Part shown: one piece after another, positions 14,358-41,394 of the stretch | Layout: each line of letters begins with the position of its first letter | Position numbering within the stretch: the stretch's first letter is position 1 | NCBI GenBank assembly: GCA_965223905.1 | Contig: CBDCXV010000002.1 | Span: 256,001-320,000, forward strand | From: Candidatus Latescibacterota bacterium | GTDB lineage: Bacteria > Latescibacterota > UBA2968 > UBA8231 | Length of the DNA: 64,000 nt | Reading direction: 5' to 3' | Position numbers and translations under genes: made by a program | Notes under the pieces: model-generated | The model's database searches: none | Seen by the model: only the letters and a program-made list of their open reading frames with translations | What the model was told of the DNA's origin: nothing

Positions 14358-16049
14358 TCAGTCCCCTTCGCCTTCGCGCAGCGTCACCATCCGGTTTACG
14401 GGGAGATCTTCCCACGAGTCGGCCTGCCCACTTGGCCAGTGCACCTTCACCCGCTCGACGAGCTTCTCTGCTCCGAGACCGAAGTGAATCCGCGGATCGT
14501 TCGAGGCCAGGTAACTGGCGCCGGAGACCACCTCCTTTACCTGACGGCGACCTCCCGACCACAACTCGATGCGAGCGCCGATGCCGTCGCGGTTGCTGCG
14601 CGTGCCAGTCAGGTGCACTGTCAGCCAGCGACCCGAGTTGTCATTGTTGCCGCCGTCGTTGCGCAGCAGTTCCGCGGGCCCATTGTTGTTATTCACCAGA
14701 ATGTCGACGTCGCCGTCGTCGTCGTAGTCTGCGAAGGCGGCTCCGCGACTCACCCAGGGAACCGCCGATGCCAACCCAGCGGCGGAGCTCACATCCGCGA
14801 AATGCCCGTCGTCATTGCGAAACAGCTGGTTGGGCTGTTTGTAAGTCAGCACCTTCTCCATCTGGTCGATGTTGTGGAGCACATGGCCGTTGGCGCAGAA
14901 CAGATCGAGGTCACCGTCGTTGTCGAAGTCGAGGAACCGGGCCCCCCAGGCCAGGGGCAGCAGGGTCGGCCCGGTCAGACCGGCAATGGAAGTGACGTCG
15001 CTGAAAAAACCATTCGCCAGATTGCGGTAGAGCGTATGGGTCTCGAATGAGAAATTGACGACGAACAGATCCTGGTAGCCATCCAGGTCGAAATCCCCGA
15101 AATCAACGCCCATTCCGGCTTCCACCTCACCACCGCCGTTGTGACTGACGCCGCGCATCATACCCGCCTCTTCGAATCGTCCGTCACTGCCGTTGATCAA
15201 CAACTGGTTCGCCACGCGGTCGTTGGCCACGAACAGATCGACATCGCCGTCCAAATCGTAGTCGGAGCAGGCCACACCGAGACCCTTGCCCTGGGCAATT
15301 TCGGTCATACCCGTTGCCGCGGTTACATCCCTGAAATGTCCTTCTCCTTCGTTGTGGTAGAGGCGGTCGGGGACGCTGTCGTAAGAATCCGGCCCGCAGT
15401 AGGCGCGCAGATTCCAGTCGTAGCAGGGGATGTGATATTCGACCTCAAAGTCGACGTAGTTGGCCACGAACAAATCGAGCTGGCCATCGTTGTCGTAATC
15501 GATCCAGGCTGCGGCGGTGCTCCACAGAGAGTCCCCGACGCCCGCCGTTGCCGTGATCTCGGCGAAGCGGCCGGTTTCGTTTCGATAGAGCGTGTTGGCC
15601 CCGAAGTTGGTTACGTAGAGATCGGCGTCTCCGTCGTTGTCGTAGTCTGCTGCCGCGCAACCCATTCCATAAGCCGTATCCCCTGCGCTGGTAGCGGCGG
15701 TTACATCGGTGAACAGTCCCTGTGAGTTGTTGCGGTAAAGCCTGTTGGCAGGAGGCACTTCATATCTGTACCCAGGAAGAGGGGCGCCGTTGACGAGATA
15801 AATGTCGAGAGAGCCGTCCCCGTCGTAGTCGAGGAAGCCTCCTCCCGAACCGACCGTTTCCACGTAGTAGAGTTCGCCGCTGCCGCCGTGGGTGTGGGTG
15901 AAGTCCACACCGGAGGCGCTCCCGACCTCTGCAAACCGAACGGATCGCCCCGGCGGCTCCGCCGTTGTGGGATCAGTCAGGCTTGCAGCAGCGAGACCGG
16001 CGCACAGCAGGAGTGGCGATCCTGCTCTATTGCGCATCCGCCGGAGCAA
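14358..16049 (-). CDS. CRTAC1-family protein (FG-GAP repeats plus C-terminal ASPIC/UnbV domain)
   Basis: Repeated DYDxDGDxD motifs; SRGAAFADYDDDGDVD; SNRDGIGARI...SYLASNDPRIHFGLG...VHWPSG. Confidence 0.88.
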   Translation of the reverse strand: MLRRMRNRAGSPLLLCAGLAAASLTDPTTAEPPGRSVRFAEVGSASGVDFTHTHGGSGELYYVETVGSGGGFLDYDGDGSLDIYLVNGAPLPGYRYEVPPANRLYRNNSQGLFTDVTAATSAGDTAYGMGCAAADYDNDGDADLYVTNFGANTLYRNETGRFAEITATAGVGDSLWSTAAAWIDYDNDGQLDLFVANYVDFEVEYHIPCYDWNLRAYCGPDSYDSVPDRLYHNEGEGHFRDVTAATGMTEIAQGKGLGVACSDYDLDGDVDLFVANDRVANQLLINGSDGRFEEAGMMRGVSHNGGGEVEAGMGVDFGDFDLDGYQDLFVVNFSFETHTLYRNLANGFFSDVTSIAGLTGPTLLPLAWGARFLDFDNDGDLDLFCANGHVLHNIDQMEKVLTYKQPNQLFRNDDGHFADVSSAAGLASAVPWVSRGAAFADYDDDGDVDILVNNNNGPAELLRNDGGNNDNSGRWLTVHLTGTRSNRDGIGARIELWSGGRRQVKEVVSGASYLASNDPRIHFGLGAEKLVERVKVHWPSGQADSWEDLPVNRMVTLREGEGD

Positions 16050-17769
16050 AGAAGATCAGCTGTGGCTTGGGGTGTACCGGAAGCTCCTCGAAGCGGCGCA
16101 GAGCGGCGCGCGCCTCGTCGGCCAACCCCAGCTTGAAGTCGGCCTGGGCGAGACCGTAATGGGCGTATTTGTGCTCCGGATTCCTTTTTATGGTCTCCTC
16201 GTACATCGCTGCTGACTCTTGTGAGCGCCCCTGCCCGTCGTATACCTTGCCAAGCTCGAAGTAGGCCTCCGCATATTCGGGATTGCGTTCAATCGCCCTC
16301 ACCAGGCTTTTCTCTGCAGCGGCCAGCAAACCGTGTCGCGATTTCGTCACACCGAGGCTATAGTAGGTCAGTGCTGAGTTTGGGTCGCGGACGGACACCG
16401 CTTCAAACTCGCCGGCAGCGCGCTCGTACTGACCTATGTTCAGATAGACGTGGGCGAGATTGTACTGATACAGTATCTCCTCTCTGCCGCCCTCGTCCAC
16501 CGCCCACTGCAGAAACTGGATCGCTTCGTCGTACTCACCGTGCTCTTTGAACAGGATCAGGGCGAGGTCGTTATAGGCTGGCGCAAATCCCGGATCGATC
16601 TGGATGGCGGTCCGGAGGGCAACCATGGACTCGTCGAAGCGCTCGAGTTGTGCCAATGCCAATCCGAGACCGCGATAGTTCGCGGCGTTGTCAGCATCCA
16701 GCTCGATGGCCGCCCGGTAGTGGGACAATGCAAGGGCGTGGCTGCGGTGGGCTATCGCTTCCTGGGCGGCCCTGCGTTCGATCCGCGAAGCTTTTGCCGG
16801 CTCAGTACCCAGAACCTTGTCTCGCGCGTGGAGCTCGAGGCCAAGTCTGGCCGATCGGTACAGGCGCGCTTCGCCGGCAGCGGGCCAGCCGCGGCTTTTG
16901 TACAGCCGGCCCAGATCGTACTGATCCCTGGCGATATCGGGGTGGATCATTTTCAGGGCGCCCCGTTCGATGTACTCCGGTCTGTTCTCCTTGAGGTCGT
17001 GGAGGCGCTCCATGGCAGCCTCGGCTTCCGAGGTCCTGCCGGCCTTGCGATAGAGTCGACTCAGTTGGTAGTACACTTCGAGGAAATCTTCGTCCAGGTC
17101 TCGGGCCCGCTCAAGCGAAGCGATGGCGAGAGAATCCTGTCCCAGGCGCGCTCGCGCCTTGCCCAAGCCATACCAGCACTCCGCCTGATCCGGATCGAGC
17201 CGGCTGGCCAATGCGTACTCTTCCAGTGCCTCTCGTGGTTTGTTTTTACGCAGAAGGATTGAACCGAGGTAGCGGCGGGACAGGCTGCTCATGGGATCGA
17301 TCTGCAGCGACGCTTGAAAGGCGAGCCGGGCGCGGTCGAGAATTCCTCGGAATTCATAGACGATGCCGGCGTTGTAGTGGTAAGCCGGATGACCTGGATC
17401 CAGTTCGATTGCCCGCTCGAAGGCGGCGCAGGCCTCGTCGTACTGTCGCTTGCGGGTTTGGGCGATCGCCAGACCGTGGTGTGCCTGCGCCAGCGTCGTG
17501 TCGAGCGCCGTGGCCATGGCGAAGTAGGTCCTGGCACTGTCCGTCTGACCTCTGGCGAGGAACAGGACGCCCAGTTCATAAGGCCAGAGTGCGTCGGCCG
17601 ATCGAGTGGCGATCCCAAGGCGCAGAAGCTGCTCAGCCTGTTTGAATCGCCTCGCCTCCATCAAGTGAATGGCCTGACGAAGATCTCGCTGCCCGATCGC
17701 CTCGAGGCCGGAGCTCACGAAAATGGTGAGGGCCACCACACCGGCAAAGGTAGTCCTCCTCCCCCTCAT
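16027..17769 (-). CDS. Secreted tetratricopeptide repeat protein
   Basis: Many TPR units (e.g. AYHYNAG, AYNDLA, AEAYFELG); signal peptide; ATGA overlap with the upstream gene. Confidence 0.85.
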   Translation of the reverse strand: MRGRRTTFAGVVALTIFVSSGLEAIGQRDLRQAIHLMEARRFKQAEQLLRLGIATRSADALWPYELGVLFLARGQTDSARTYFAMATALDTTLAQAHHGLAIAQTRKRQYDEACAAFERAIELDPGHPAYHYNAGIVYEFRGILDRARLAFQASLQIDPMSSLSRRYLGSILLRKNKPREALEEYALASRLDPDQAECWYGLGKARARLGQDSLAIASLERARDLDEDFLEVYYQLSRLYRKAGRTSEAEAAMERLHDLKENRPEYIERGALKMIHPDIARDQYDLGRLYKSRGWPAAGEARLYRSARLGLELHARDKVLGTEPAKASRIERRAAQEAIAHRSHALALSHYRAAIELDADNAANYRGLGLALAQLERFDESMVALRTAIQIDPGFAPAYNDLALILFKEHGEYDEAIQFLQWAVDEGGREEILYQYNLAHVYLNIGQYERAAGEFEAVSVRDPNSALTYYSLGVTKSRHGLLAAAEKSLVRAIERNPEYAEAYFELGKVYDGQGRSQESAAMYEETIKRNPEHKYAHYGLAQADFKLGLADEARAALRRFEELPVHPKPQLIFFAPADAQ

Positions 17770-20078
17770 TGAGCCCCGCTGCTTCCCTCCACGAGCATGT
17801 GTCGCTCGTTCACCGACAAGCCGGTGAACACCTCCACGCGCCCACTGGACCAGCGGACTTCGGCCTCTTCGATGGAGTCCGCTTCACCCAAGCCGATTTC
17901 CAGTTGCCGGCTGTCATTGACACCAAAGCCACCGCCACCGCTCACAACATGGTGGTAGTTCCGGGCGCCGGCTCGTACCCGCACCCGCGCGCCAATGGCG
18001 TCGCGATTGCTCAGCGTGCCGACCAGGCTCAGCGTTACCCAGTTATGCCCCTCCGTGTCGTTGCGTAACAACCGGTTGTTGCGGCGCTCACCGGGGAAAA
18101 AACCGCCGATTGGAACGTAGATATCCTGGTCGCCGTCCCCGTCGTAGTCGGCGAGCGTCACTCCGTGCCCCTTCTCAAGCTGTTCCATGCCAATCTGTGC
18201 AGCTATGTCAACGAAGGTGCCGTCGCCGCGGTTGCGCAGGAGTGCGTCCGGTTCGAGCCGCCCCATCTCGGCGCCGCCGTTGGCCAGGTAGATGTCGAGG
18301 TGGCCGTCGTTGTCGAAATCTCCGTGGGCGGCTCCTGTAGAGCCGTAGGCGTGTCCCAGGCCGGCCTTGTAAGTGACGTCTGCGTAGCCGCCATCTCCTT
18401 CGTTGTGATACAGGGCGGGACGGTTGACGTTGTGCAGGGTGCCCCCGCGAATCCTGCTGTCGGCGACTGCCGTGTAGGCGCTCATCTGACTGCAGAACAA
18501 ATCCAGGTAGCCGTCATTGTCGTAGTCGAAGAAGAAGGTGAAGTACCCCTGCACCGGGAGTTGTGTCCGCGTCTGTTTGGTCACATCGACAAAACGCACC
18601 GTTCCCGTCGTCCCGTCCGTGTCGTTGCGATAGAAGCTGTTGAGGCCAACGAAATGAGCGAGGTACAAATCCAGATCGCCGTCGTTGTCGTAGTCGCCGA
18701 GAGCGCTGCCGATCGTGCGGCCGGGCATGATCCCGGCTGTGGCGGCGATGTCTTCGAAGCGGTTTCCCCCGTCGCTCAGAAACAAGCGATTCCTCGACTC
18801 ACCGCCGGTGACTCCGTTGGTGACGACGAGATCGACACAGCCGTCGTTGTCGATGTCTCCCCATGTAGCGCCGAAGCTGCTTCCACCGTCCTCGACGCCC
18901 ACCTCGTGGGCAACATCGACGAAGGACCCGTCTCCGCCGTTCGCGTAGAGACTGTTTTGACCCCTTCCCCACCAACCTTTGCGGGTCAGGTACAGGTCAG
19001 GATCACCGTCGTTGTCGTAGTCGGCAAATACCGACCCGAGTCCCCACTCTCCGTCCAGCCCTGCCGCCTTCGCCCGATCGACGAACCCCTCCCCACCATC
19101 GTTGCGAAACAGGGCGTTGGCTTCGTAGGCGCCCGTGGCAAACAGATCGAGATCCCCGTCCCCGTCGTAGTCGGCCCAGGCGCTGCCCATACCACCGTCC
19201 CATTTCGTCGCGCCCATCTCGGCGCCAACGTCGACAAACCTGATGGCATCCGATTCTGGCGCTTCATGCGGAAATTGCAGCCGCATGGTGTCGTCAAAAT
19301 CGTCGGGATAGCCCCCAAGCTGCTTGTACCCCAGGTATAGACTCCAGCGCCCGATCGGGTTTTTTGGGCTCCCCTCGGCCGCTCTACGCAGTTCCCTCGC
19401 GGCCGTCTCGAAGTCGCCTTTCAGATAGAAAGTCATGCCCAGGCGGTGCCTGGTTCGAAAGTTGGTTGGTTTCTCGCTCAAAACATCCCGGTAGCACTCG
19501 ATGGCTTCATCCAGTTTTCCCTGCTGCAAGAAGACGTCGCCCAGGTTCAGCAATGCCTCCTGGTTCGCGGGATCCAGCGTGCGGACTCGGGCAAATGCAT
19601 CCTCCGCCTCCTCCAGATCCATCATCTGGTTGGCGCGCATGCGCATGGACCCCACTCCCATCAACGCCCCGGCCGATTCTGGCTCGAGCTTGAGGACACG
19701 TTGCAACAGCGCATAGGCCTCTTCGAGTCTTCCCAGCCGTCCCACTACCTTGGAGAGGTGAAAGGGGGCTCGCGGGCGTTCAGGATCGAGGCGAATTGCC
19801 TTTCGCAACAACGACTCGGCTTTGGTCAGCTCATTGTTGGCCAACCAGATCCAGGCCAGTGAGACGTGTGCATCGTAGTGAGTGGAGTCGATGGCGATGC
19901 AGCGGACGAAGAGTTGCTCGGCGCGCTTGGTGAGGCGCTGGTCCAGTGCCTCCATACCCTTCGTGTACAACTCGCTGATATTCTCCTCCTCGCTCGCCCA
20001 GGCTCGCGAGCCGAGGTTGGTAGCGTTGAGTGAGGCGAGGCAGATCCAGAGGGGAATAAGGCGGGGTGTCCTGTTCAC
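17766..20078 (-). CDS. TPR + FG-GAP repeat + ASPIC/UnbV protein
   Basis: N-terminal TPRs, DYDGDGDLD repeats, SNRDAIGARV...GLG...VRWSSG. Confidence 0.85.
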   Translation of the reverse strand: MNRTPRLIPLWICLASLNATNLGSRAWASEEENISELYTKGMEALDQRLTKRAEQLFVRCIAIDSTHYDAHVSLAWIWLANNELTKAESLLRKAIRLDPERPRAPFHLSKVVGRLGRLEEAYALLQRVLKLEPESAGALMGVGSMRMRANQMMDLEEAEDAFARVRTLDPANQEALLNLGDVFLQQGKLDEAIECYRDVLSEKPTNFRTRHRLGMTFYLKGDFETAARELRRAAEGSPKNPIGRWSLYLGYKQLGGYPDDFDDTMRLQFPHEAPESDAIRFVDVGAEMGATKWDGGMGSAWADYDGDGDLDLFATGAYEANALFRNDGGEGFVDRAKAAGLDGEWGLGSVFADYDNDGDPDLYLTRKGWWGRGQNSLYANGGDGSFVDVAHEVGVEDGGSSFGATWGDIDNDGCVDLVVTNGVTGGESRNRLFLSDGGNRFEDIAATAGIMPGRTIGSALGDYDNDGDLDLYLAHFVGLNSFYRNDTDGTTGTVRFVDVTKQTRTQLPVQGYFTFFFDYDNDGYLDLFCSQMSAYTAVADSRIRGGTLHNVNRPALYHNEGDGGYADVTYKAGLGHAYGSTGAAHGDFDNDGHLDIYLANGGAEMGRLEPDALLRNRGDGTFVDIAAQIGMEQLEKGHGVTLADYDGDGDQDIYVPIGGFFPGERRNNRLLRNDTEGHNWVTLSLVGTLSNRDAIGARVRVRAGARNYHHVVSGGGGFGVNDSRQLEIGLGEADSIEEAEVRWSSGRVEVFTGLSVNERHMLVEGSSGAQ

Positions 20079-20123
20079 GATTGCTGTCGCTTACCTGTCC
20101 GATAGATGTTCGCAAGCGCTGAC

Positions 20124-20168
20124 AAAAAAAGGAAACCCCCGCCGACTTTGTGGAGCCGACGGGGGTTT
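20124..20168 (-). terminator. Rho-independent terminator after the CBM9-like gene
   Basis: Minus-strand RNA AAACCCCCGUCGGCU-CCACAA-AGUCGGCGGGGGUUU forms a 15-bp stem (two G-U pairs), followed by CC and U7. Confidence 0.85.
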
Positions 20169-20195
20169 GTTGAACGTCCTGAAGACAGTGTCGTT

Positions 20196-21374: not shown

Positions 21375-21548
21375 TTCCCACAATCTCCGTGGATATGGGT
21401 AGAGGAATGACAACGAGTACATCATCTGATCGCACCGCTATTTAGAATCCGCAATTCTTAACGAATTTGAGCCGGAAATATAGTCAGACACCAGGATAAA
21501 ACCAAGAGAATTCTCGCTTCCGCGAAAGAAGGTTACCGGCCATTTGCC

Positions 21549-21920
21549 CTATCTCACCGTCTCATCACGATTCGTGATCGAGCCCTCCTGGGTGAGGGCG
21601 AAGACGACGATGTTGACGCCGAACTAAAGTGGCGCGTGGGGTCGAGTTCGGTGCCTGGCGTAGAAATCTCCATGCGGGGACGGTTGTCCCTGGCAAAAAG
21701 GCAGTGCCTGATAGCCAATCAAGCCAGCCAGGCGGCCACCCAACTCGACGACGACCATGTAGTCGGCGGACGCGGGTCGGCAAGTCAAGTTCTATCTTGC
21801 TTGCGCACAAATATGCCCCGCCGCCGCCAGACAGACCGCCAGCACCGGCAGTCAGCCTCCAGCAGGCCGCGTCAGGTCGACGTCGGATGCCGGTCTTCTG
21901 AATCGTGCGCTGATCGCCAT
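21549..21920 (-). pseudogene. Internally deleted third copy of the DUF4159 anchored protein
   Basis: Starts MAISARFRRPASDVDLTR at 21920, contains DYMVVVELGGRLAGLIGYQ, and ends FGVNIVVFALTQEGSITNRDETVR*. All segments match the two intact paralogs. Confidence 0.8.
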
Positions 21921-21978
21921 TGGTGCTCTCAGCCGCGAATGGAGCAGAGTTCGGTGTCGGCACGCTGAGGCGGAAACT

Positions 21979-22806: not shown

Positions 22807-22826
22807 GGTAACTGCTCTTTCTCCGA

Positions 22827-25559: not shown

Positions 25560-25560
25560 T

Positions 25561-28656: not shown

Positions 28657-28687
28657 GTGCCCCCTGAAACACGATACCCACCTTCTC

Positions 28688-29110: not shown

Positions 29111-29143
29111 GGCTCGCTAGCGCTGACTCGGGTCCATGATTCT

Positions 29144-29782: not shown

Positions 29783-29798
29783 CCTGATCCTTCCTTTC

Positions 29799-33038: not shown

Positions 33039-33058
33039 ATGACCAACCGCTCTCAGTT

Positions 33059-35878
33059 CTATTGAACAGTGCCGACACCGGCGAACATTTTAAAGAAAAA
33101 CCGCACGAAGCTCTCGTCCGGCAGCCCGGACACATCAAAGTTGATACTTCGGTATTCCGCACCTGCCTCGGTGCCAATTTTATAACCTCCGAAATTTGAC
33201 TGATTGATCCAGGCAAGCTGATAGGTCTGGTGCTTGGCATCGTTGTCGCGGTCGCGAAAATCGATGCGCCGGTCGACGAGCAGAGGCAGTCCTTGAGCCC
33301 CGATGGCGATCGTCGAACGATGGGTCAGATGGTAGTCGATCCGAACCAATGGCGCCAGGATCAGATCCTCCCTCAGAGGCAGAGCGATAGTGGATCGCTC
33401 CTGACGCCGGTACTGCAATTTGAACCGGGGCATGAAAGCCATGCGACCGTAGTGGCGGGTGTAGTCTCCCTTTATGAGGTAGCCGACAAAGTCTACATCG
33501 TCTTCTGGCTGCACATCACCGTTGTCAAGGGTAGTCGCCTGCTGGTCGTTCAGTTCATAGCGCAACTTGGCGTTGATATTCCAGTAGCGTCCAGGTTTGT
33601 ATTCCACGTGCAGGAGTCCCCGGTTGACGAAGCTATCTCGAGCTTCGAGCAAATCCGGAAAGAAAAACTGCATGGGCACTAGGCGTCCATCGCTGATCAA
33701 GTCGACCCTGAAATCAAAGTAGGGATTGGCGATATCGTCCTCGACCGTTTTGCTCTCGTGGTCGAGCCGCAGGCGCCAGTGGTCGCCCTGCGACCACTCG
33801 TAGCGCAAGCGCCCGTAGGTCACGTCGTTGTGGCCCCCGCCGGCGATCTGATCCACGGAGTAGCGTCCGAGCGTCGCCTCGAGCCCTGGCGCGAGTGACG
33901 ACGCAGCGGTGACGTGGAAACCCTCTTCGTCCTTGAAGTAAGGGTAGTTCGGCTGATCGTCATCCTCCCACATGTCAAGCAAAAAGTTGTTGTTGAAATC
34001 GTCGCCGAAATAGAACTCTCTCGGATCCGTGAAGTACATCAGGAAAGGCTCGTCCGAGTCCAGCAACTCGTTGCGGTTGCGGTTGTTGTCGGCGAATCCG
34101 TCAGCGTCGAAATCGAAGAATGGGTAGACGCCGGCGTCTGACTCCAGATATTTGGATTCCCGACCTGCGATGTCCCAGTCCTGGACCCAGTCATCCGGCC
34201 ACTGGTCGATGTCATCGTTGTCGTCCACCAGGGCGTAAATCGGGTTGTTTAGTTTGTTGCCGCCTGAGTTCCGATAGGTGCTCGCCGGGTCTTGACGATC
34301 ATCGAGGTTGAAGAAGTAATGCGTCCCGGCTGTTCGCGAATCGACAATATCCTCGTTCTGCAGGACCCCGAACGTCCGGTTGATGAACGGGACCTGTACG
34401 CCGTCGCTGCTGAACTCCGGGTTGGCCTCGGCCTTTTGTCGCGCCGCAGACTTGAATGCGTAGGTGTTGTACTTGGGACCGATGTGAAATCCCTCGAAAC
34501 CCAGAGAGACCGCGTGTATCTCCTTTTCCACCGTCACATACCAGCCGAAATCGTCATAGTCGGCGCGCTCTCCGTCATCGGCGGCGTGCTGGAAATACGT
34601 GGAGCTTCGAGCAACTTCTCCGCGCACCTCGAAACCGCTCACCGAGGCGCTGCCGTTGAGCCCGACGACGTCCTGACCGGTGAGCATGCCCTGTTCGAAA
34701 ACGACCTGCCCCTTGTTGGACATGTCGATCACATTGCCTTCGGCCCGCCGCGCGATGACGAACTCCGTGGTGCGAGCCCCGCCGCCCGACGATACCGTGT
34801 AACGGTGATCCTGGCGCGTCAGAATCTGGTAGTCGTTGCCGACGACGGCGGCAATTTTCACACCCACCGTGCTGTCCGGCACGGGAAAGGAGTATTCGAC
34901 AAACACGGGAATGCGAAAGCCCTGCCGGTTCTCGAAATAGCCGCTGGCCTCTACATGCCGTGGTCCTGCGGCGACACCCTCGGACACCTCGGGCGCTGAC
35001 GCCGGGATCTTCTCGAATCGATCGACCCCACCCTCCCGTATGTGAGCGGTAGCAGACACAGCAAAAACCGCCGCGCCGCCGACACCATCCTCCGGTGAAT
35101 CGTCCTGAAAGCGGACGATGACCTCCTGCACGCTCGTTTGCGGAGGCGCTAGACCCTTGCGTGTGTTGGTCGTAAAACCCCGGCTGCTGTCGAAGCGATG
35201 CAGATTCACGTAGGTGCCGCCAAGAATCAGAAAGTCACCGACGTGGCTCTCCCAGTGGCCGCCCATGAGGTAGACGCCGTCAGTCACGGTCCGCCTTTCA
35301 CCGCCGCGATCCAGTCGATCTTTGAGATCGAGTTTGATCGGATCCGAGATCCTTGACAGAATGATGCTGAAGCGATTGTTCGCCGACGCCTCGTCCCAGC
35401 GGATGCCGTTGAGCCGTGCCATGTTCAGAGTCAGCGGTGAAAAAGTAGTGCTGATGGCGTCACCGACCATCAGTCGAGTCGACCAGCCTCCGTACGCATC
35501 GTCGACGATGATCAAGTGGCGCAGCCAGTTTTCGTAGAACTGTCCCTTCAGCAGGACGCTGCCCTGCTCGCCCTGTGCGACGGCGCGCGTCTCCTCCATT
35601 CGAAACACTTCGTAGCCTTCGGTCAGATAGTTGCCGAAGGCGTCGTAGCGTTTGAAAATCGGAATGCCCTCGCGGTAGTTCTCGTAGTCGGTCCAGCCGA
35701 AATTCAGAAAGGGCGCATAGTAGCGCGACACGAAGGGATCGGCGAACCGGCCCTTTGTCAGCAACAGATCTTCGCTGCTCTCCTGCTCCCAATGCTGCGC
35801 CGGCACGCCAACAGGGATGAACAGCAGGGCCAGGAAGAGCCTGGTAAACGATCTCGCTCGGTGTTTTGGCGCGATCAT
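33059..35878 (-). CDS. Large exported protein, putative outer-membrane beta-barrel (paralog 2)
   Basis: Signal peptide; RYDAFGN, GDAISTTFSPLTL, GGHWES, VNLHRFDS, DDSPEDG, DFDADGFADNNRNRN, FGDDFNNN, EDDDQPNYPY. Confidence 0.65.
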   Translation of the reverse strand: MIAPKHRARSFTRLFLALLFIPVGVPAQHWEQESSEDLLLTKGRFADPFVSRYYAPFLNFGWTDYENYREGIPIFKRYDAFGNYLTEGYEVFRMEETRAVAQGEQGSVLLKGQFYENWLRHLIIVDDAYGGWSTRLMVGDAISTTFSPLTLNMARLNGIRWDEASANNRFSIILSRISDPIKLDLKDRLDRGGERRTVTDGVYLMGGHWESHVGDFLILGGTYVNLHRFDSSRGFTTNTRKGLAPPQTSVQEVIVRFQDDSPEDGVGGAAVFAVSATAHIREGGVDRFEKIPASAPEVSEGVAAGPRHVEASGYFENRQGFRIPVFVEYSFPVPDSTVGVKIAAVVGNDYQILTRQDHRYTVSSGGGARTTEFVIARRAEGNVIDMSNKGQVVFEQGMLTGQDVVGLNGSASVSGFEVRGEVARSSTYFQHAADDGERADYDDFGWYVTVEKEIHAVSLGFEGFHIGPKYNTYAFKSAARQKAEANPEFSSDGVQVPFINRTFGVLQNEDIVDSRTAGTHYFFNLDDRQDPASTYRNSGGNKLNNPIYALVDDNDDIDQWPDDWVQDWDIAGRESKYLESDAGVYPFFDFDADGFADNNRNRNELLDSDEPFLMYFTDPREFYFGDDFNNNFLLDMWEDDDQPNYPYFKDEEGFHVTAASSLAPGLEATLGRYSVDQIAGGGHNDVTYGRLRYEWSQGDHWRLRLDHESKTVEDDIANPYFDFRVDLISDGRLVPMQFFFPDLLEARDSFVNRGLLHVEYKPGRYWNINAKLRYELNDQQATTLDNGDVQPEDDVDFVGYLIKGDYTRHYGRMAFMPRFKLQYRRQERSTIALPLREDLILAPLVRIDYHLTHRSTIAIGAQGLPLLVDRRIDFRDRDNDAKHQTYQLAWINQSNFGGYKIGTEAGAEYRSINFDVSGLPDESFVRFFFKMFAGVGTVQ

Positions 35879-38778
35879 CAGCGTACCAGGGTCGGGGATC
35901 CGGAGAGCATGCGCACGAAGAAGCGAGTGAATCTGGTGTCCGGCCTGTCCGGATCGTCGAAATCAACCTCCTGGCGCAGAATCCCGAGCTCGAGGCCGAG
36001 ACGATAGCCTTCGTAGTACGTCTCGTTAAACCACATGAAGGTCCAGCTCCTCAAGTCGGCATCGTTCGCCGCGTTCGCGAAGTCCTTGCGTCGATCTGCA
36101 AGCAGCGGAAACCCCTGAACACCCAGTCGCAACTGAGAGCCCGATCCGAAGTGGAAATCAGCGCGCAGAATGGGCAAAACCTGGAGATTTTCGAGAAAGG
36201 GACCCTCTTCGCTGGACCGCTCCCAGAGGCGGTACATGGCCTTGAACCGCGGCATCAGGTCCAGACTGCCCCTCTGGTAGCTGTAGCCGGTACGCAGGAT
36301 GGCACCGTAAAAGTCGAGGTCGTCTTCGAGTTGCTCCTCTCCAGAGGCGAAACGGCGAGCATGCTGATGGTTCAATTCGTAACGCAGCCTGCCCTCTATG
36401 TTCCAGCGCTCACGAGGTTGGAAATCGGCACGGAATAACCCCCTGTTGATGAAACTGTCGCGAGCCTCGAGCTCGTCGTCGAAGAAGGTCTGGGTGTAGC
36501 GGCTGCCCGTGAGAGCCCCAACGTTTACGTTCCGGCGATCCAGTTCAACTTCGATCCCCTCCTGCAGAAGAAACCTGAAGTAGGGATTCGAAATATCGTC
36601 CCTGACGCTCTTCGACTCGTGGTCCCAGCGTACCCGCCAGCGCGAAGCGTAGTGGCGGTCGAGGTTGAGCTTTCCGTAGACGACATCGTTGTGGCCGCTG
36701 GCAGCGATCTGGTCCACGTCGTAGCGACCGACGCTGAGCTTGAGGCCGTTGAACAGCTTCAGGGCGGTCAACAGGTGCAGCCCCTGCTCGTCCTTGTAGT
36801 ACGGATAGTTTGGCAGGCTGTCATCTTCGGAGGCGTCGGTGATGAAGTTGTTGTTGTAGTCGTCCCCGAAATGGAACTCCTGAGGGTCTGAGAAGTACAT
36901 GAGGAAAGGCTCGTCGTAATCGGGGAACTCATTGCGATTGCGATTCGTGTCCTGGTGTCCATCCTGGTCGAGGTCGGAATACGGAAAGATCGATCCCTCT
37001 TTTGGGGTGCCGCCACCCTTCAGCCGCCGCCAGTTATCCGCTCTCTCGTCGTAGAGCATGTTGTCGTTGTCGTCGACGAAGCTGTAGAACGGATTGATGG
37101 CACTGCCCCCGGGCTGCGCGTCGGCATAGAAATCCTGCCGCAGTCGCTCCCGGCCGGCTTCTTCCTCCGGGTTGAAGTAGAAAACCTCTCCGGTCGGAAC
37201 CGGATTTCGCGGATCCGCCGGATGCGGGTTGTAGGAGGTGTACCTGGCGCCGATGGAAAACAGTTCGGCGCCGAACGACCACCGGGACCACTCCTTATCC
37301 AGAGTGAGGTACCCGGCGACGTCTTCGAAGCCGCTGCGCTTGCCCAGCACCGAGGGATACTGGAAATGGTTGGAGCTTTTGGCGAGTTCGCCGTGCATCT
37401 CCAGACCGGGGATCAGCAGCCTGCCGTTGACGCCAAACACCTCCACACCGGTGGACAGGCCGTAGTCGAAACGGGTGAACCGCTTGTTGGACATATCGAC
37501 GATGTTGTCTTCGGCCCGGCGGATGATCTGAAAATCGGTTTCCCGAGGCACGGTGCTGCGGGGACCGGTCCGTTGCGTATGGTTTTGGGCAAGACTGATC
37601 TTGTAGTCGTTGGCCACTAGGGCGGAAAACTCGACGCCGACGATTTCCGTATTGTTCAAACCGGCGGCCTCGAAATCGAAGGTGTAGTCGATGTAGACAG
37701 GCCTGTCGATGCCATCAGTTCTGAAAACACCGCTGGCCTCGAGGTGGCGACCACGAGCGACGGCGCCCGGTGAAAGCTCCGGCGGCTGCGGAGTCAGCGT
37801 CACCGTCGTCTCAGCGGCGCCGGGATCGTCGAACGGCGGGCCTACGGTCACGTTGGCGACGAGGTCGAACACGGCTGCCCCGCCGATGCCATCCTCCGGC
37901 GAATCGTCTTCGAAGCGCACGATGATCTGATCGGGAACCGAATTGGGCGGCGCCAGGCCTTTGCGGGTATTGGTCTTGAAGCCTCGTTGGCTGTCGAAGC
38001 GGTGCAAGTTCACGTAGGAGGCGCCGACGACGAGGTTTTCGCCGACACCGCTCTCCCAATGTCCTCCCATCATGTAGACGCCGTCGTTGATATTTTCGAT
38101 TTGCCCGCGCTTACCCAGAGCTACGTTGAAGTTCTCCCCTGCCCCGGCGAGCTTTTGCTTGAGCGGATCGGAGATGCGGGACACAATCAGGGTAAGCTCA
38201 TGGTTGCCGACGGAGGCGGCGTCGAAACGGAGACCGTTGAAATTGACCATGTCGAGTGTCAGCGGGGTGAAGGTGGTGTGGATGAAGTCCCCCAGTATCA
38301 CTCTGGTGCTCCAGCTGCCATATGAGTCGTCGGCGACAACCAGATGATGGAGCCAGTTCTGGTAGAATTGTCCCTTGGTTCCCTGGCTGCCGATCAGCGG
38401 AGCTCGGGTGCGGTATTCCTGGAGCTGGAAGATCTCGTAGCCGTCAGCGATGAAATTGCCGAAGGAGTCGTAGTTGCGCAGATAGGGTGTCGTGTTGAGG
38501 CGGTAGTTCTGGTAGTCGTTCCAACCGTAGGTGCGGTACCCGGGCTGCCAGCGCCCCATGAAAGCATCGCCGAAACGGTGGTCTTCGTAGAACGTTCCGG
38601 CGCTGGATCCGGGAACTACCAGCGTTTCGCGCGGTAGCTCGTCCTCAGTCGTGTAGTTCGGAAAACGGCGCGTCCCCTTCCCTTCCTTGAGATCCGGGTC
38701 CTGCGACTCAACCCCGTGGACCCACAGGGTGATCGAGCCCAGACACAGCCAGAAAAGTGTCCGTTTCCAGTCGGGCAT
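35878..38778 (-). CDS. Large exported protein, putative outer-membrane beta-barrel (paralog 1)
   Basis: Same motif series as paralog 2 (YDSFGN, TTFTPLTL, GGHWES, VNLHRFDS, DDSPEDG, DLDQDGHQDTNRNRN, GDDYNNN); stop overlaps the next start. Confidence 0.65.
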   Translation of the reverse strand: MPDWKRTLFWLCLGSITLWVHGVESQDPDLKEGKGTRRFPNYTTEDELPRETLVVPGSSAGTFYEDHRFGDAFMGRWQPGYRTYGWNDYQNYRLNTTPYLRNYDSFGNFIADGYEIFQLQEYRTRAPLIGSQGTKGQFYQNWLHHLVVADDSYGSWSTRVILGDFIHTTFTPLTLDMVNFNGLRFDAASVGNHELTLIVSRISDPLKQKLAGAGENFNVALGKRGQIENINDGVYMMGGHWESGVGENLVVGASYVNLHRFDSQRGFKTNTRKGLAPPNSVPDQIIVRFEDDSPEDGIGGAAVFDLVANVTVGPPFDDPGAAETTVTLTPQPPELSPGAVARGRHLEASGVFRTDGIDRPVYIDYTFDFEAAGLNNTEIVGVEFSALVANDYKISLAQNHTQRTGPRSTVPRETDFQIIRRAEDNIVDMSNKRFTRFDYGLSTGVEVFGVNGRLLIPGLEMHGELAKSSNHFQYPSVLGKRSGFEDVAGYLTLDKEWSRWSFGAELFSIGARYTSYNPHPADPRNPVPTGEVFYFNPEEEAGRERLRQDFYADAQPGGSAINPFYSFVDDNDNMLYDERADNWRRLKGGGTPKEGSIFPYSDLDQDGHQDTNRNRNEFPDYDEPFLMYFSDPQEFHFGDDYNNNFITDASEDDSLPNYPYYKDEQGLHLLTALKLFNGLKLSVGRYDVDQIAASGHNDVVYGKLNLDRHYASRWRVRWDHESKSVRDDISNPYFRFLLQEGIEVELDRRNVNVGALTGSRYTQTFFDDELEARDSFINRGLFRADFQPRERWNIEGRLRYELNHQHARRFASGEEQLEDDLDFYGAILRTGYSYQRGSLDLMPRFKAMYRLWERSSEEGPFLENLQVLPILRADFHFGSGSQLRLGVQGFPLLADRRKDFANAANDADLRSWTFMWFNETYYEGYRLGLELGILRQEVDFDDPDRPDTRFTRFFVRMLSGSPTLVR

Positions 38779-38807
38779 TGGAGCTGGTGGCCTCGAATCG
38801 ATGCTGG

Positions 38808-39707
38808 TCAGAGCTGATACACCAGTGAGAGCCGCTGGCTACCGCCGGCCGTAATCTCGGATGCGTAGTGGTGGGCGTAGTTCAGCACGATTTTTCCGAA
38901 ACGCAGACCGAGCCCCCCATCTACCTCGCCGGCAGCGCCATCGCTGGCCATGCCGCTGCCTCCCGCCCGCAGGCGCAGATCGTAACGTCCGCCAAGTTTG
39001 TACTCAGCTCCGACTCGCAGCCTGGAGCCTCCGTCGATGAATTCGAGGTCGGCCTCCAGTGCGTACATCGCGTCCGCATAGCCCAGACCCAGGGTGATGC
39101 GGCGAGGAATGCCGCTTCCGCCTCTCGACTCGGAGACATTGGGCTCGTTGAGGCTCTGCCCGCTGAATGCGACGCTGACCTGCCCGTCATTCAGAGTGAA
39201 TGCCTCCATGCGCGCCCCCACGTCGAGGCCCAGTCCGGAGCCGGACCGATCGGCGTCACTGATGAGGGTTTGGGGGTCGCTGTAGCCGTCGGCAGACCAG
39301 CGCATGAATCGCAGGCCAACTCCAAGATTCAGGTTCTTTCCGATGGTCCGGCCGAATCCGAGGAGCAGGCCGGTCTCTGTATAGAAACCAGCCCCCAGGC
39401 CGGCGACTCCAAGTCCGACACGGCCCCCTGCCAGCTTTCGCGCGTAGTTGGCGGACCAGTTTCCTATACCCGGCCCCGCATCGAGGTCGGGGAAAAGTCG
39501 CGCGTACTCAACGCTGATTTGAGAGCGCTCGATGCGCGCCAGTCCGGCGGTATTGTACCAAAGGGCGCTGGCATCATCGCCGTGCACGGTGACCGCGTGA
39601 CCCATCGCACTGGCGCGACTCGCGTGACCTAGAGTTTCAAAGGCCCCCTGGACCGGCACTGCCCCGATACCCAGGGTGAGGCTCAGAATGAAAAGTCGTT
39701 GATACAT
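38808..39707 (-). CDS. PorV/PorQ (FadL-like) family outer-membrane protein
   Basis: Signal peptide, then SRASAMGHAVT...DASALWYNTAGLA (PorV/FadL N-terminal motif), GLDVGA, LRAGG, and terminal strand LSLVYQL. Confidence 0.7.
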   Translation of the reverse strand: MYQRLFILSLTLGIGAVPVQGAFETLGHASRASAMGHAVTVHGDDASALWYNTAGLARIERSQISVEYARLFPDLDAGPGIGNWSANYARKLAGGRVGLGVAGLGAGFYTETGLLLGFGRTIGKNLNLGVGLRFMRWSADGYSDPQTLISDADRSGSGLGLDVGARMEAFTLNDGQVSVAFSGQSLNEPNVSESRGGSGIPRRITLGLGYADAMYALEADLEFIDGGSRLRVGAEYKLGGRYDLRLRAGGSGMASDGAAGEVDGGLGLRFGKIVLNYAHHYASEITAGGSQRLSLVYQL

Positions 39708-39732
39708 TGATTGCTCTCTGGTTTGGTTGATG

Positions 39733-41394
39733 TCAGTAGGCGACACCGATAGCCCCGTTGAACTCGATCCCGTCCCCGCTGTCGACGCTTATTTCGAAGA
39801 GATAAAGCCCCGGGGGAACCAGGTCGCCGTCGTCATCGACCCCATCCCATTCCACCGTGTGAGTGCCGCTTTTCTGCTTCATCTCCATGGCCCGAACCGG
39901 CCTGCCGTTGAGATCGAAGATGCGGATGGCCACCGGTCGCAGCACGCTGATTCTGCCGAGATCGTATTGAATCCGTACGACATCGAATCTTTCGTCGTCG
40001 TTCGGTGAGAACGGATTCGGCGCCACGGTGAGGTTGCCCCTGTCGAAGACGCGATCGATGAGGCCCACTCCGAAAAGGGCAAGCGTGTTACCGCGTTCCT
40101 GACTGGAAGCCGCTTCGATCTGCTGGGGGTTGTCGGGCTGCAGCCGATCGACGAGCTGTCCACGGAAGAGGTTGACTTCGTCGTAAAGAACGGTGCTGAA
40201 ACTGATCTGAATGTCGGCGTCGGCGACAATGGGGTCGGCGAAGATGATGTCGGTGTGCCGGGCAGCGTTGCTCAAGGTGAAATCAGTGCCGTCGACGAGC
40301 GTCTCGCCGTCTCTGAGCACCCTCTGCACTTTCAGACTGTTGGGACCCTCGAGCCTGAAGATGTCGAAGCCAGTGCCCGATCCGACCCTCGCGGCAACTT
40401 CGAGGAGCAGATTCTGACGCAGGCCAACAGGCACTTCATCCGCAGCCAGCTCTTCGTCGGCGTCGTCCACTGGCGCTTCCAGGTCCGTATCATCCCGGCT
40501 CACCTGTCCAGAGACGGCGGCTGCCAACGGATCTGCGTGGTCGATCACCAGGCTCGTCAGTCGCGGGGAAGTAGCCGGATTATCTGTGACGAGGTTCACT
40601 TGGTACTGGAGGAACCTGCGGGGCTCAGGGAGGTTGACCAGCATCCCTTCCTGTTCGGAGCTGGGGCTGGACCAGTCACTCCAGTTGTCGTCGGGCGTGC
40701 TCGATGGTCCGGTGCGGAATTGCAGCGTCAGCTCACTCCCTTGATCCACCTCTGCCGTCCAGCGGGCCATCCCGAAATTCCTGGCCGTGCTCAAATTCAC
40801 GACATCGGAAGTAAAGCTTCCCGCATTCAGAAAACCGCTTCCGTACACCTCCACCTCGCCTATCTTCACCTGGTTCAGCCTGTCGATTGCCTTTATTTGT
40901 GCTCGAACATGGCGCGCGACAACGGGCGCGAAGGTTGTGTCGATTAGGGGGTTAAGATTTCGGGTATTGAGGACCTGCTCCGTGAATACGACGTCGTCCA
41001 ATGAGGTTTGAATGCTGTACCCCTTCATAAACTCCCTGGTGTCACCCGTCAGAGGTCTTATGATGACGTGATCTACCAGCCTGTCTTGCTCAAGGTCAAT
41101 CTGGACGTAGAAGTTGAACACGACGGGGTCACCGCGGCGGTCTCCGCTGTTCCAGACATTGTTCGTACCGGTGTTGTTGTCGGTCACTTTCGCGGGGAAA
41201 CCGGCGTGATCCACAGCCGGCTTGCCGAGAGCAAGATTTTCCTCCGAATCGACCGACCCGAGAACGAGCGCGCCCGTACTGTCCGCCCGCGCCTCGTCGC
41301 TCGATATCCTGTCCCAGCTTTCAACGACGAAGGGTTGCGCGGAAACAGGGAGAGCGGACACGAGTGTGAGACAGAGGGCGAGCTTTGCTGTCAT
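39733..41394 (-). CDS. Secreted protein with discoidin (F5/8 type C)-like domain and C-terminal FlgD-Ig/T9SS-CTD-like domain
   Basis: NLALGKP...QIDL...ARHVR...IGEVEVYG; C-terminal PNPFSPNDD...IFDLNGRPVR...EWDGVDDDGDLVPPGLY. Confidence 0.75.
   Translation of the reverse strand: MTAKLALCLTLVSALPVSAQPFVVESWDRISSDEARADSTGALVLGSVDSEENLALGKPAVDHAGFPAKVTDNNTGTNNVWNSGDRRGDPVVFNFYVQIDLEQDRLVDHVIIRPLTGDTREFMKGYSIQTSLDDVVFTEQVLNTRNLNPLIDTTFAPVVARHVRAQIKAIDRLNQVKIGEVEVYGSGFLNAGSFTSDVVNLSTARNFGMARWTAEVDQGSELTLQFRTGPSSTPDDNWSDWSSPSSEQEGMLVNLPEPRRFLQYQVNLVTDNPATSPRLTSLVIDHADPLAAAVSGQVSRDDTDLEAPVDDADEELAADEVPVGLRQNLLLEVAARVGSGTGFDIFRLEGPNSLKVQRVLRDGETLVDGTDFTLSNAARHTDIIFADPIVADADIQISFSTVLYDEVNLFRGQLVDRLQPDNPQQIEAASSQERGNTLALFGVGLIDRVFDRGNLTVAPNPFSPNDDERFDVVRIQYDLGRISVLRPVAIRIFDLNGRPVRAMEMKQKSGTHTVEWDGVDDDGDLVPPGLYLFEISVDSGDGIEFNGAIGVAY

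Follow-up and report, generated by a model that had tools for sequence, protein, structure and literature searches.

What does an ExbB/ExbD motor drive when the genes packed around it encode neither a canonical TonB nor a TonB-dependent receptor? An envelope gene cluster of this kind, real and conserved, lies in a 64,000-nucleotide stretch of a Latescibacterota genome (the whole stretch is called the window here, and its genome the host genome, G000). We read the cluster as a lineage-specific, PUL-like uptake system energised by the proton-motive force, a reading to which we give a probability of about 0.5. That its products form a motor-transducer-barrel machine is rather probable; import as the job of that machine is a more tentative assignment, held at somewhat less than even confidence.

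The first-pass annotation described a run of same-strand genes, and the ORF listing, Pfam and NCBIfam agree with its named genes and their order over window positions 14358-41481, all on the minus strand. The outermost gene likely starts at the ATG at 41394, which was the end coordinate given there. The junctions are exact (1-nt overlap at 35878; 26835/26836 abutting; 1-nt gap at 25559/25561; 4-nt overlap at 17766-17769), and the absences listed are borne out: in Pfam and NCBIfam searches the cluster proteins show no Plug, TonB_dep_Rec, TonB_C, SusD, SprA or GldL/M/N match. The single remnant, of a DUF4159 gene, also stands, but the intact genes number 16 rather than 15; three TPR/FG-GAP genes come after the CBM9-like gene. 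Intergenic gaps are no larger than 33 nt between 41481 and 21979. A strong terminator-like hairpin (20133..20168, minus strand; 15 pairs and a T-run) likely ends the first transcription unit, at 20168-20133, and likely divides the span into two units. In two metatranscriptome libraries of a single study, short contigs with 0-1 differences match six of the cluster genes, and one of 328 nt crosses the TPR/ExbB junction; DNA carry-over could also give such contigs, which are a weak hint of transcription.

The motor genes encode an ExbB/TolQ-type proton channel subunit (29144..29782; MotA_ExbB 100.6 bits) and two ExbD/TolR paralogs, 36% identical to each other, at 28688..29110 (ExbD 87.7 bits; transmembrane Asp in the motif TPLIDCVF) and 26836..27264 (ExbD 93.5 bits; transmembrane Asp present). 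Among NCBIfam models the channel subunit scores 94.5 bits with TolQ and 76.2 bits with ExbB, both under the equivalog cut-offs. Beside it is encoded a secreted TPR scaffold of 1079 aa (29799..33038; TPR families, with CpoB/YbgF- and BamD-like repeats), which matches the YbgF model in 8 stretches (256.9 bits) and the PorW model at 118.8 bits (cut-off 250). The short form of what we call the module lipoprotein is encoded from 21979 to about 22830, and a lipobox is found in all 10 rows of its alignment. Long forms in relatives carry a C-terminal, TonB_C-like AgmX/PglI domain (NF033768 at 40.4, 54.7 and 35.6 bits; cut-off 40), and the host's own C1 copy scores 26-29 bits with TonB_C; the window's own lipoprotein has no AgmX/PglI domain.

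The gene at 25561..26835 encodes a TonB/TolA-like transducer with a DUF4159 head (79.3 bits). A short cytoplasmic RFxGPS motif is followed by a transmembrane helix with His38, a disordered basic linker rich in Pro, Lys and Arg, and the head; in the structural model the helix covers residues 16-47, confidence is low over 50-162, and the head occupies 168-424. This model and the conserved N-terminal features support a TonB-like architecture for the protein, which the first-pass annotation had called His-anchored. The transmembrane His is found in 17 of 23 transducer relatives and is absent in 6, including those at core loci within the family to which the host belongs. Foldseek placed the head closest to 4i66 (TMt 0.77), then to ThuA-like proteins and IFT52. 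Two other identities of the head were considered and rejected: vWA, of which no entry was among the top 50 Foldseek matches, and TonB_C, the head being DUF4159 with a ThuA/GIFT fold instead.

Three large proteins, of 966 aa (35878..38778), 939 aa (33059..35878) and 910 aa (22827..25559, directly downstream of the transducer gene), belong by sequence and model to one Pfam-less outer-membrane barrel family of about 30 strands. The first two, which belong to no Pfam or NCBIfam family, are 48% identical, and the 910-aa paralog is 35% identical to the 939-aa one over residues 56-934 of the latter. The AF2 model of the 939-aa protein (pLDDT 69.5, pTM 0.69) has about 30-32 long strands and a disordered insert rich in Asp and Asn at roughly residues 470-650; across residues 60-937 it matches generic barrels only (SlpA, Z 14.4; SprA, Z 12.7). 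A PDB sequence search with this protein gave no match, and its family forms 1052 clusters at 50% identity among 1.84 billion proteins. The large proteins thus model as outer-membrane barrels of another kind than ordinary TonB-dependent receptors, in support of the first-pass reading. No plug or TonB box is recognisable in them, and barrels of some 30 strands exceed any known importer, their size being nearer that of SlpA or SprA.

Barrel paralogs number about 30 in the host genome, and for 22 of the 30 a T9SS-type CTD protein is encoded no more than three genes away. Their cassettes often include SurA-like PPIases or chaperones, DUF6785/6784 membrane proteins and sugar enzymes, and GH32/43 and GFO/IDH oxidoreductases also occur in them; besides discoidin and the sorting tail, no enzyme or binding domain can be recognised in most of the partner proteins. 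DUF6785/6784 paralogs adjoin barrel paralogs at four loci (L043, L044, L056 and L061) and are also found beside the canonical TPR-ExbB-TonB cluster (L144). The window itself holds sugar and sugar-acid enzyme genes and, at 5049..7091 on the plus strand with aldose 1-epimerase genes on both sides, a gene for a polytopic DUF6785/DUF6784 membrane protein with about 12 hydrophobic segments.

The CTD family is represented in the cluster by a secreted discoidin protein with a FlgD_ig/CHU_C T9SS-type sorting tail (39733..41481; F5_F8_type_C 38.8, FlgD_ig 36.4 and CHU_C 25.1 bits, the CHU_C cut-off being 27). It has 54 relatives in the host genome; of these 54 ORFs, 29 have a barrel no more than 3 genes away, where 1.4 would be expected, and 0 of 2000 shuffles reach 29. 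Next comes a PorV/PorQ-like small outer-membrane barrel (38808..39746; NF033709 50.2 bits, cut-off 90) with 2 host paralogs, both at related loci. It had been taken for a T9SS part, an assignment undermined by the sub-threshold match and by a better PorU-PorV pair elsewhere in the genome. The FGE-sulfatase-fold lipoprotein (27271..28746; FGE-sulfatase 157 bits; lipobox LVAC) fares no better as the proposed GldK/PorK analogue, at 79 bits against a GldK cut-off of 350. Past the module lipoprotein are genes for a secreted protein that weakly resembles CBM9 (20196..21425; CBM9_1 22.3 bits, cut-off 23.4) and, by Pfam, for a TPR, FG-GAP and ASPIC/UnbV protein (17766..20078), a 580-aa TPR protein (16027..17769) and a 563-aa FG-GAP/ASPIC protein (14358..16049).

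The chief ground on which the cluster might have been discarded, a lack of synteny in relatives, does not hold. The module order recurs across Latescibacterota, and the arrangement is more than chance. Around transducer genes at 20 loci from 13 genomes, we found a barrel at 11, a TPR protein of at least 800 aa at 9, and ExbB and the lipoprotein at 8 each; several loci have the exact order barrel(s), TPR, DUF5683, small protein, ExbB, ExbD, ExbD, transducer, lipoprotein. The 39 named-genome loci with full 10-kb flanks, which overlap the former set in that some loci come from the same genomes, include a barrel in 32, the lipoprotein in 28, the TPR giant (at least 800 aa) in 20 and ExbB in 11; genes of the TPR580, FGGAP563 and TPRFGGAP types are present in 20, 19 and 16, the PorV-like gene in 9 and the FGE gene in 3. 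The closest relatives (L063 and L064) repeat the window's gene order, FGE gene included, but otherwise the FGE lipoprotein occurs in the module at only two loci; it is accessory, a part not conserved in most relatives. At L064 the ortholog of the CBM9-like protein comes after the module lipoprotein, and at L031 orthologs of the 17766..20078 protein adjoin the transducer (472 bits).

Transducer and barrel are both present in 33 of 61 phylum genomes, the transducer only in 5, the barrel only in 1 and neither in 22, counts in which related genomes are not independent. All members of families f2 (16/16) and f3 (3/3) have SprA, and neither the transducer nor the barrel is found in any of these 19; the lipoprotein family was not found in four f2/f3 genomes among five searched, the fifth being of f7. 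Copy number reaches 29 transducer matches in one genome (G001), and another (G003) has minimal transducer-barrel gene pairs (L023, L024 and L026); in the host genome just 2 of the 6 transducer genes have a barrel no more than 3 genes away.

The closest published relatives are vWA-headed transducers (PMC12204202). As the main text of that paper describes them, their operons encode a TPR protein, a tolQ-like and two tolR-like proteins and then an SHLS-anchored transducer, which resembles ours in that a conserved His lies in the transmembrane helix, the linker is disordered and the globular head is not of the TonB type. The head here is instead DUF4159, with a ThuA/GIFT-like fold, and the module adds giant barrels, a conserved lipoprotein and proteins with T9SS tails. 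DUF4159 has 0 occurrences and Latescibacteria none in the main text, whose supplements might list such proteins. The description of the locus as undescribed therefore holds in part: the operon grammar has been published in vWA-headed form, whereas a machine of DUF4159 transducer and giant barrels, as in this Latescibacterota cluster, appears not to have been studied so far. The Ton system and SusC/SusD PULs of Bacteroidota are alike in their ExbB/ExbD motor, TonB-like anchor and linker, and in many paralogous outer-membrane barrels set in cassettes with surface binders, sugar enzymes and membrane carriers. They differ in that the transducer here has no TonB_C head, the barrels have no Plug/TonB_dep_Rec match and about 30 strands against 22, and the partners bear T9SS-type sorting tails in place of being SusD-like lipoproteins.

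As an uptake system, the cluster would work as follows. In an ExbB5-ExbD2 stator, proton flow would pull or turn the transducer, whose DUF4159 head would engage the giant barrels, probably through the periplasmic segment conserved at their N-termini or through the Asp-rich insert. A periplasmic scaffold and a second tether may be supplied by the TPR protein and the lipoprotein, and force would open or unplug the barrel. Judging from context, the barrels would gate the outer membrane for nutrient-uptake cassettes of a PUL-like kind. Proteins with a discoidin domain would reach the surface via the SprA/PorU/PorV secretion system, whose genes lie at other sites in the genome, and there fill the role of SusD-like substrate binders, and the DUF6785/6784 proteins are candidate inner-membrane carriers. 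If this is true, very large outer-membrane barrels are worked by a TonB-like arm whose head is unusual, most likely for nutrient capture or import. Counting against it are the size of the barrels and their want of a recognisable plug or TonB box, the canonical Ton set already present, the transducers that lack the transmembrane His, the few host transducer genes close to a barrel, the scarcity of recognisable domains in the partner proteins, and the adjacency of CTD and barrel genes, which fits a PorP/SprF-like anchor equally well. Of the earlier proposal of an importer or a T9SS-like exporter, the conserved ExbBD envelope cluster survives and the T9SS-part assignments are weakened; between importer and exporter or display system, context leans towards import.

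It is unlikely, in our judgement, that the module handles surface proteins, giving proton-motive energy to T9SS-type cargo for secretion, for PorP/SprF-like anchoring to the giant barrels, or for gliding-like adhesin movement (as in Agl-Glt or GldJ/SprB). T9SS outer-membrane parts are present in the phylum with the GldLMN motor undetected (SprA 56/61, GldM 0/61), and the host encodes SprA as well as PorU, the latter with a PorV-like protein next to it, but gave no GldL, GldM or GldN match. PorP/SprF had no match in the host genome or 5 relatives, yet many CHU_C (type-B-like) tails adjoin barrels, as type-B CTD cargo genes adjoin PorP/SprF. Shared with T9SS/gliding systems are also FlgD_ig/CHU_C-tailed cargo, PorV/PorQ-like barrels within the module, an FGE-fold lipoprotein weakly matching GldK/GldJ and a TPR protein weakly matching PorW. 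However, the silence of the GldL/M/N and PorP models is weak evidence, because they matched nothing in any control; the motor here consists of ExbB and ExbD instead of GldL and GldM; the scores of the PorV-like and GldK-like proteins fall far short of family cut-offs; SprA, PorU and a better PorV are encoded elsewhere; and the FGE gene is not among the module's conserved members. SprA-type secretion exists without the module in f2 and f3, which argues against the module being the general T9SS motor, and uptake is a better fit for the dozens of cassettes in which membrane-carrier-like and sugar genes occur. The Agl-Glt gliding machinery of Myxococcus combines a TolQ/TolR-type motor, large TPR proteins, outer-membrane barrels and integrin-like surface proteins, all with counterparts here, and integrin-like FG-GAP/ASPIC proteins are conserved transducer neighbours. 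Its TonB-like proteins, GltG and GltJ among them, carry the AgmX/PglI C-terminal domain whose model cut-off is reached by long lipoprotein forms in relatives, but not found in the window's lipoprotein. No Glt equivalog is reached (GltE 30-63 bits vs 225; GltG 34 bits vs 650), and massive paralog expansion with sugar-use genes is not known as a Glt trait.

It is quite improbable that the core locus is the phylum's Tol-Pal counterpart for envelope maintenance and division, with a TolQ/TolR-like motor, a TolA-like transducer, a multiplied CpoB-like TPR protein, and barrels and lipoprotein as outer-membrane tethers. The higher TolQ score and the repeated YbgF/CpoB matches would suit it, as would the host's want of a TolB above cut-off (best 111 bits vs 343), a PD40 propeller gene upstream of the module in one genome (G009), a module adjoining ffh-rpsP-rimM-trmD-rplS in family f9, and the report, in the main text of PMC12204202, that Bacteroidetes are without identifiable tol-pal loci. 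A housekeeping system should be single-copy, however, and here up to 29 transducer matches and about 30 barrels are found per genome; the module was not found in 22 of 61 phylum genomes, complete ones included, and no Pal-like OmpA domain is seen in it. Hardly credible is an extra ExbBD set serving ordinary TonB-dependent receptors elsewhere, with barrels, DUF4159 and surface proteins as unrelated neighbours. The host does encode about 22 loci for TonB-dependent receptors and an ExbB-TonB cluster of the canonical type, but gene order is conserved between families of the phylum, transducer and barrel tend to occur in the same genomes, the genes are closely spaced, and the DUF4159 protein has a TonB-like anchor.

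The transducer gene has further copies in the window. The remnant (21565..21963, minus strand) has stops and an internal deletion in its frame translation, with N- and C-terminal pieces still recognisable; a second intact transducer gene, 69-71% identical, lies outside the flagged span at 10467..11753 on the minus strand, with an ISL3 transposase gene adjoining.

The cluster on the minus strand of the window, 14358-41481, is best read as a Ton/Tol-like force-transducing machine with giant barrels as its outer-membrane partners. We assign this reading a probability of about 0.7, because of its motor, the architecture of its transducer, the synteny of its genes and their co-distribution in the phylum.

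The ORF listing shows a dense gene run, and Pfam and NCBIfam return mostly the same gene names as the first-pass annotation. That annotation had counted 15 intact genes, where there are 16; its ‘remnant’ (21565-21963) is, from translation of 21400-22010, a DUF4159 gene that contains stops and has lost an internal segment. The tight packing it described is real: gaps are at most 33 nt over 41481 to 21979, and several genes overlap or abut. The run opens with a discoidin protein bearing a FlgD_ig/CHU_C tail (39733-41481, likely start the ATG at 41394), followed by a PorV/PorQ-like protein (50.2 bits, cut-off 90), two family-less proteins of 966 aa (35878-38778) and 939 aa (33059-35878), and a 1079-aa TPR protein (29799-33038) that reaches the YbgF/CpoB model (256.9 bits, 8 stretches) and also has BamD-like repeats. 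Then come ExbB, ExbD, an FGE-sulfatase lipoprotein, a second ExbD, the DUF4159 protein (25561-26835), a 910-aa paralog of the 966- and 939-aa proteins (22827-25559), a lipoprotein (21979-22830), a weak CBM9-like protein, and three TPR and FG-GAP/ASPIC proteins. The last three genes seem to form a second transcription unit, since a strong terminator-like hairpin lies at 20168-20133. Neighbours in the window also include aldose epimerases, a DUF6785/6784 gene, an enolase-superfamily enzyme and an HpcH/HpaI aldolase.

The whole cluster recurs with few differences on DNA contigs of two further studies. Two metatranscriptome libraries of one study contain short contigs, with 0-1 differences, from the transducer, FGE, ExbD/ExbB, TPR and two barrel genes, and one such contig spans the TPR/ExbB junction; for transcription of the cluster these are only a hint. 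Cluster parts that the RNA-library contigs do not cover, and sequencing runs with only small word shares, were left out as evidence.

ExbB matches MotA_ExbB at 100.6 bits and the ExbD pair scores 87.7 and 93.5 bits in Pfam; the NCBIfam equivalog models are not reached. The transmembrane aspartate (TPLIDCVF) is kept in both ExbD sequences. The cluster thus shares with the Ton system an ExbB of the MotA_ExbB family and an ExbD with a transmembrane aspartate, whereas the transducer head is TonB_C there and DUF4159 here. As the first-pass annotation had stated of the window, no canonical tonB is present there, TonB_C being found in no cluster protein by Pfam or NCBIfam. The transducer model has a confident helix (residues 16-47), a low-confidence Lys/Arg/Pro-rich stretch (50-162) and a head (168-424) whose best match is the DUF4159 crystal structure 4i66 (TMt 0.77; sequence E 7.5e-19). 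The next Foldseek matches of the head are ThuA-like proteins, flavodoxins and the IFT52 N-domain, with no vWA entry among the best 50 fold matches. A cytoplasmic RFxxPS motif and a basic KPxT..R.PR..KP.E segment recur in 23 transducer relatives, 17 of which have a histidine in the transmembrane helix. Judged from sequence and predicted structure, the DUF4159 protein has a TonB- or TolA-like build.

To our knowledge, TonB and TolA were for long the sole known carriers of proton-motive energy to the outer membrane. Comparative genomics alone added motor-driven force transducers with vWA heads in 2025 (Williams-Jones et al. 2025, PMC12204202); going by the main text of that paper, these are the nearest published relatives. 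They share with the DUF4159 transducer a histidine in the transmembrane helix, a disordered linker and a globular head; the head is a von Willebrand factor A domain there and DUF4159 here, which makes DUF4159 a third head type after TonB/TolA and vWA. The gene order given in that text (TPR, tolQ-like, two tolR-like, transducer) is shared by three loci of other genomes in the phylum, L027, L036 and L040, and the window departs from it in having the FGE gene between the two ExbD genes. The same main text describes a barrel partner for none of the vWA-headed transducers, whereas here there are giant barrels, and it does not mention DUF4159. No description of the module was found in the literature on DUF4159, on Ton in Latescibacterota and on T9SS in Gemmatimonadetes and Fibrobacteres, represented mostly by titles, and no paper turned up on T9SS in Latescibacteria; DUF4159 appears in this literature in a Pfam release note only, and a paper on ExbB in Latescibacteria, as far as it was available, covers canonical Ton only.

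The barrel family is unannotated and is the newest part of the system. An AlphaFold2 model of the 939-aa protein from 25 homologs (pLDDT 69.5, pTM 0.69) is all-beta, with ~30-32 long strands in two halves, between which lies a low-confidence insert rich in Asp and Asn (residues 470-650). Near the N-terminus the barrels have a conserved Y-x-N-Y-G-W segment. Structural alignments cover residues 60 to 937, which indicates a single large barrel, as modelled. Foldseek and VIA return only generic outer-membrane barrels (SlpA, Z 14.4; AlgE; porins; ushers; SprA, Z 12.7), with TonB-dependent transporters (TBDTs) appearing only among these generic matches at TM ~0.2, and no specific family among the matches. 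Pfam and NCBIfam (E 0.01) give no family for the three large proteins, and searching PDB sequences with a profile of the barrel alignment gave no match. A Ton receptor combines a Plug domain with a TonB_dep_Rec barrel of 22 strands; neither was found in the three large proteins of the cluster, of which the 939-aa one is modelled with ~30-32 strands. Homologs are unnamed proteins from Latescibacteria and ‘Handelsmanbacteria’, and the clusters in a protein atlas are likewise unnamed, from Latescibacterota and Gemmatimonadota; an atlas link to DUF6029 (0.89) is no more than a lead. At E up to 0.001, an exhaustive profile search gave 1052 clusters (50% identity), 328 of them below 1e-30. The host genome (7.9 Mb, 93.6% complete) has ~30 paralogs, some of which are absent from the approximate gene calls (longest ORF, greedy). 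The barrels are a candidate outer-membrane partner with ~1000 clusters at 50% identity and ~30 copies in one genome, in a family tied to cassettes that resemble polysaccharide utilisation loci (PULs).

Among 61 sampled genomes of the phylum, the transducer family is found in 38 and the barrel family in 34: 33 genomes have both, 5 the transducer alone, 1 the barrel alone and 22 neither, the last group including all 19 genomes of two families within Latescibacterota (f2 and f3). Synteny was read from 20 loci around transducer genes in 13 genomes and from 79 named-genome loci found with a 9-row alignment; 39 of the latter have full flanks, some of these coming from genomes already in the 20-locus sample. 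At the 39 full-flank loci a barrel is present in 32, the lipoprotein in 28, the TPR giant and a TPR580-type gene in 20 each, an FG-GAP563-type gene in 19, a CTD-family gene (T9SS-type C-terminal sorting domain) in 13, ExbB in 11, a PorV-like gene in 9 and the FGE gene in 3; the FGE lipoprotein is accessory. In type 1 loci, whose domains were checked, the genes run in the order barrel(s), TPR protein (~1080-1120 aa), DUF5683, small protein, (ExbB, ExbD, ExbD), transducer, lipoprotein. Type 2 loci are bare transducer-barrel pairs, seen in one genome (G003), and type 3 loci have PorV-like, CTD, lipoprotein and barrel genes divergent from transducer, FG-GAP/ASPIC and TPR genes. The window's gene order, FGE gene included, is repeated in its two closest relatives (transducer 67-71% identical), which gives the window the look of types 1 and 3 merged, the type 3 transducer having decayed into the remnant. 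In relatives the lipoprotein has long forms, which end in an AgmX/PglI domain with a TonB_C-like fold (40.4 and 54.7 bits, cut-off 40), and the host's own copy on contig C1 has a TonB_C match.

Most relatives have two small genes, for a DUF5683 protein (~190 aa) and an unnamed protein of ~127-148 aa, that separate the TPR giant from ExbB or the transducer (e.g. L027:6683-7744); the window cluster has neither gene, and the host locus on contig C10 has DUF5683. In three genomes of family f9 (L027, L036, L040) the module is immediately followed by ffh-rpsP-rimM-trmD-rplS and an rnf operon, a conserved housekeeping neighbourhood.

Barrels in the host genome group into 18 loci. Of the 54 CTD-family ORFs, 29 have a barrel no more than three genes away (chance expectation 1.4; 0 of 2000 shuffles as high), and 22 of 30 barrels have such an ORF within that distance. 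A Pfam scan of 154 proteins neighbouring barrel paralogs found CHU_C, FlgD_ig and Por_Secre_tail tails, often with discoidin, the cut-offs of CHU_C or Por_Secre_tail being reached. Other neighbours are SurA-like PPIases, GH32/43, GFO/IDH oxidoreductases, CBM9-like proteins, and DUF6785/6784 proteins with ~12 hydrophobic segments. SusD and TonB_dep_Rec are absent from these 154 proteins and also from the window, where the lack of SusC/SusD had already been noticed; in a SusC/SusD PUL a SusC-type TBDT adjoins a SusD-family lipoprotein, an arrangement not found here. The cassette content is the grammar of nutrient uptake.

Two-PPIase-domain SurA-like proteins (407-643 aa) recur beside barrel-plus-CTD cassettes (L044, L049, L050, L053, L058, L060 and L061) and may be dedicated chaperones of the giant barrels. 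A canonical Ton cluster of the host (L144, C1:229000-240999) has DUF6785/6784, TPR (410 aa), ExbB and TonB (TonB_C 63 bits) genes, so that the DUF6785/6784 family is tied to both classical and DUF4159-type systems. A ~305-aa ‘recurring family’ beside the cassettes was rejected as an antisense ORF-calling artefact, at least at C1:143199. Transposase genes (ISL3, IS66, IS21, IS91) lie inside several barrel cassettes, and an ISL3-family transposase gene (8588-9886, plus strand) adjoins an orphan second DUF4159 copy (10467-11753, minus strand), which suggests that mobile elements reshuffle transducer and barrel loci.

Canonical parts occur elsewhere in the host genome: one clear TonB beside ExbB, ~22 TonB-dependent receptor loci, SprA (C10:1147256-1152502, 608 bits summed) and PorU (C2:228589-231780, 617 bits). 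GldL, GldM, GldN and PorP/SprF gave no match in this genome, which is weak evidence because their models matched no control genome either. GldK has weak FGE matches only, and no TolB is above cut-off (best 111 bits versus 343). T9SS membership is not reached by the PorV-like (PorV_fam 50.2 versus 90 bits) and PorK/GldK-like (GldK 79 versus 350) proteins of the window, whereas a cargo sorting domain is present on its discoidin protein (FlgD_ig 36.4 bits, cut-off 27, residues 517-569 of 582; CHU_C 25.1 bits, cut-off 27). Agl-Glt equivalogs are not reached (GltE 30.6 and 62.9 versus 225 bits, GltG 33.7 versus 650), the AgmX/PglI domain model being the only shared item, in relatives only. About 24 kb upstream of the window, locus L146 (C2:226000-239999) has PorU (Peptidase_C25), then a PorV-like gene, then a 1131-aa protein with PD40 propeller repeats and an Omp85 domain, which resembles the ‘OMP-TolB-like’ proteins in the main text of PMC12204202.

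What such a machine does is judged from the cassette context, which makes uptake gated by the proton-motive force (PMF) the most likely job, held tentatively and at somewhat under even odds; binding proteins delivered by the T9SS would take the role of SusD. The barrels, if motor-gated, would represent a second type of energised outer-membrane transporter, and would explain large-substrate uptake by an uncultured, widespread phylum that is present in sponge metagenomes, among other places. Handling of T9SS cargo, or a gliding-like movement of adhesins, seems unlikely: SprA-bearing families lack the module, although GldLMN were not found in the phylum, type-B-like tails adjoin barrels while PorP/SprF were not found, and the lipoprotein domain is common to Glt proteins. 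Barrels serving T9SS cargo would show the power source of SprA-type secretion outside Bacteroidota. A Tol-Pal-like housekeeping role would agree with the TolQ and CpoB likeness and with TolB not being found, but the copy numbers do not fit and we regard it as quite improbable.

The type IX outer-membrane half in Latescibacterota comprises SprA, PorU, PorV-like proteins and hundreds of sorting tails, with GldLMN not detected. SprA is found in 56 of 61 phylum genomes and GldM in 0 of 61, the latter being weak evidence because the GldM model matched no control genome either. It is quite doubtful that ExbB-ExbD-ExbD and the DUF4159 transducer are the energy source of a new surface-protein machine, the barrels being powered docking or translocation sites, or mobile gliding-type anchors, for type-B-like CTD proteins; in that case a Ton-type motor would power export or surface display, not import. 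Whether the barrels serve the preferred PMF-gated uptake or T9SS cargo, the locus offers a defined gene set for expression, modelling and knock-out.

G+C content in the window rises from ~0.58-0.62 to 0.64-0.69 at ~44 kb (44000-64000), beyond which lie housekeeping genes (purD-like GARS, Era-like GTPase, tilS, ftsH, folP-like); the part with the cluster may be an island of lower GC. On the plus strand, a 2662-aa ORF at 51297-59285 has many fibronectin type III domains (fn3 356.7 bits), and its very strong GC skew (~0.3) and repeated equal-length antisense ORFs suggest large internal tandem repeats.
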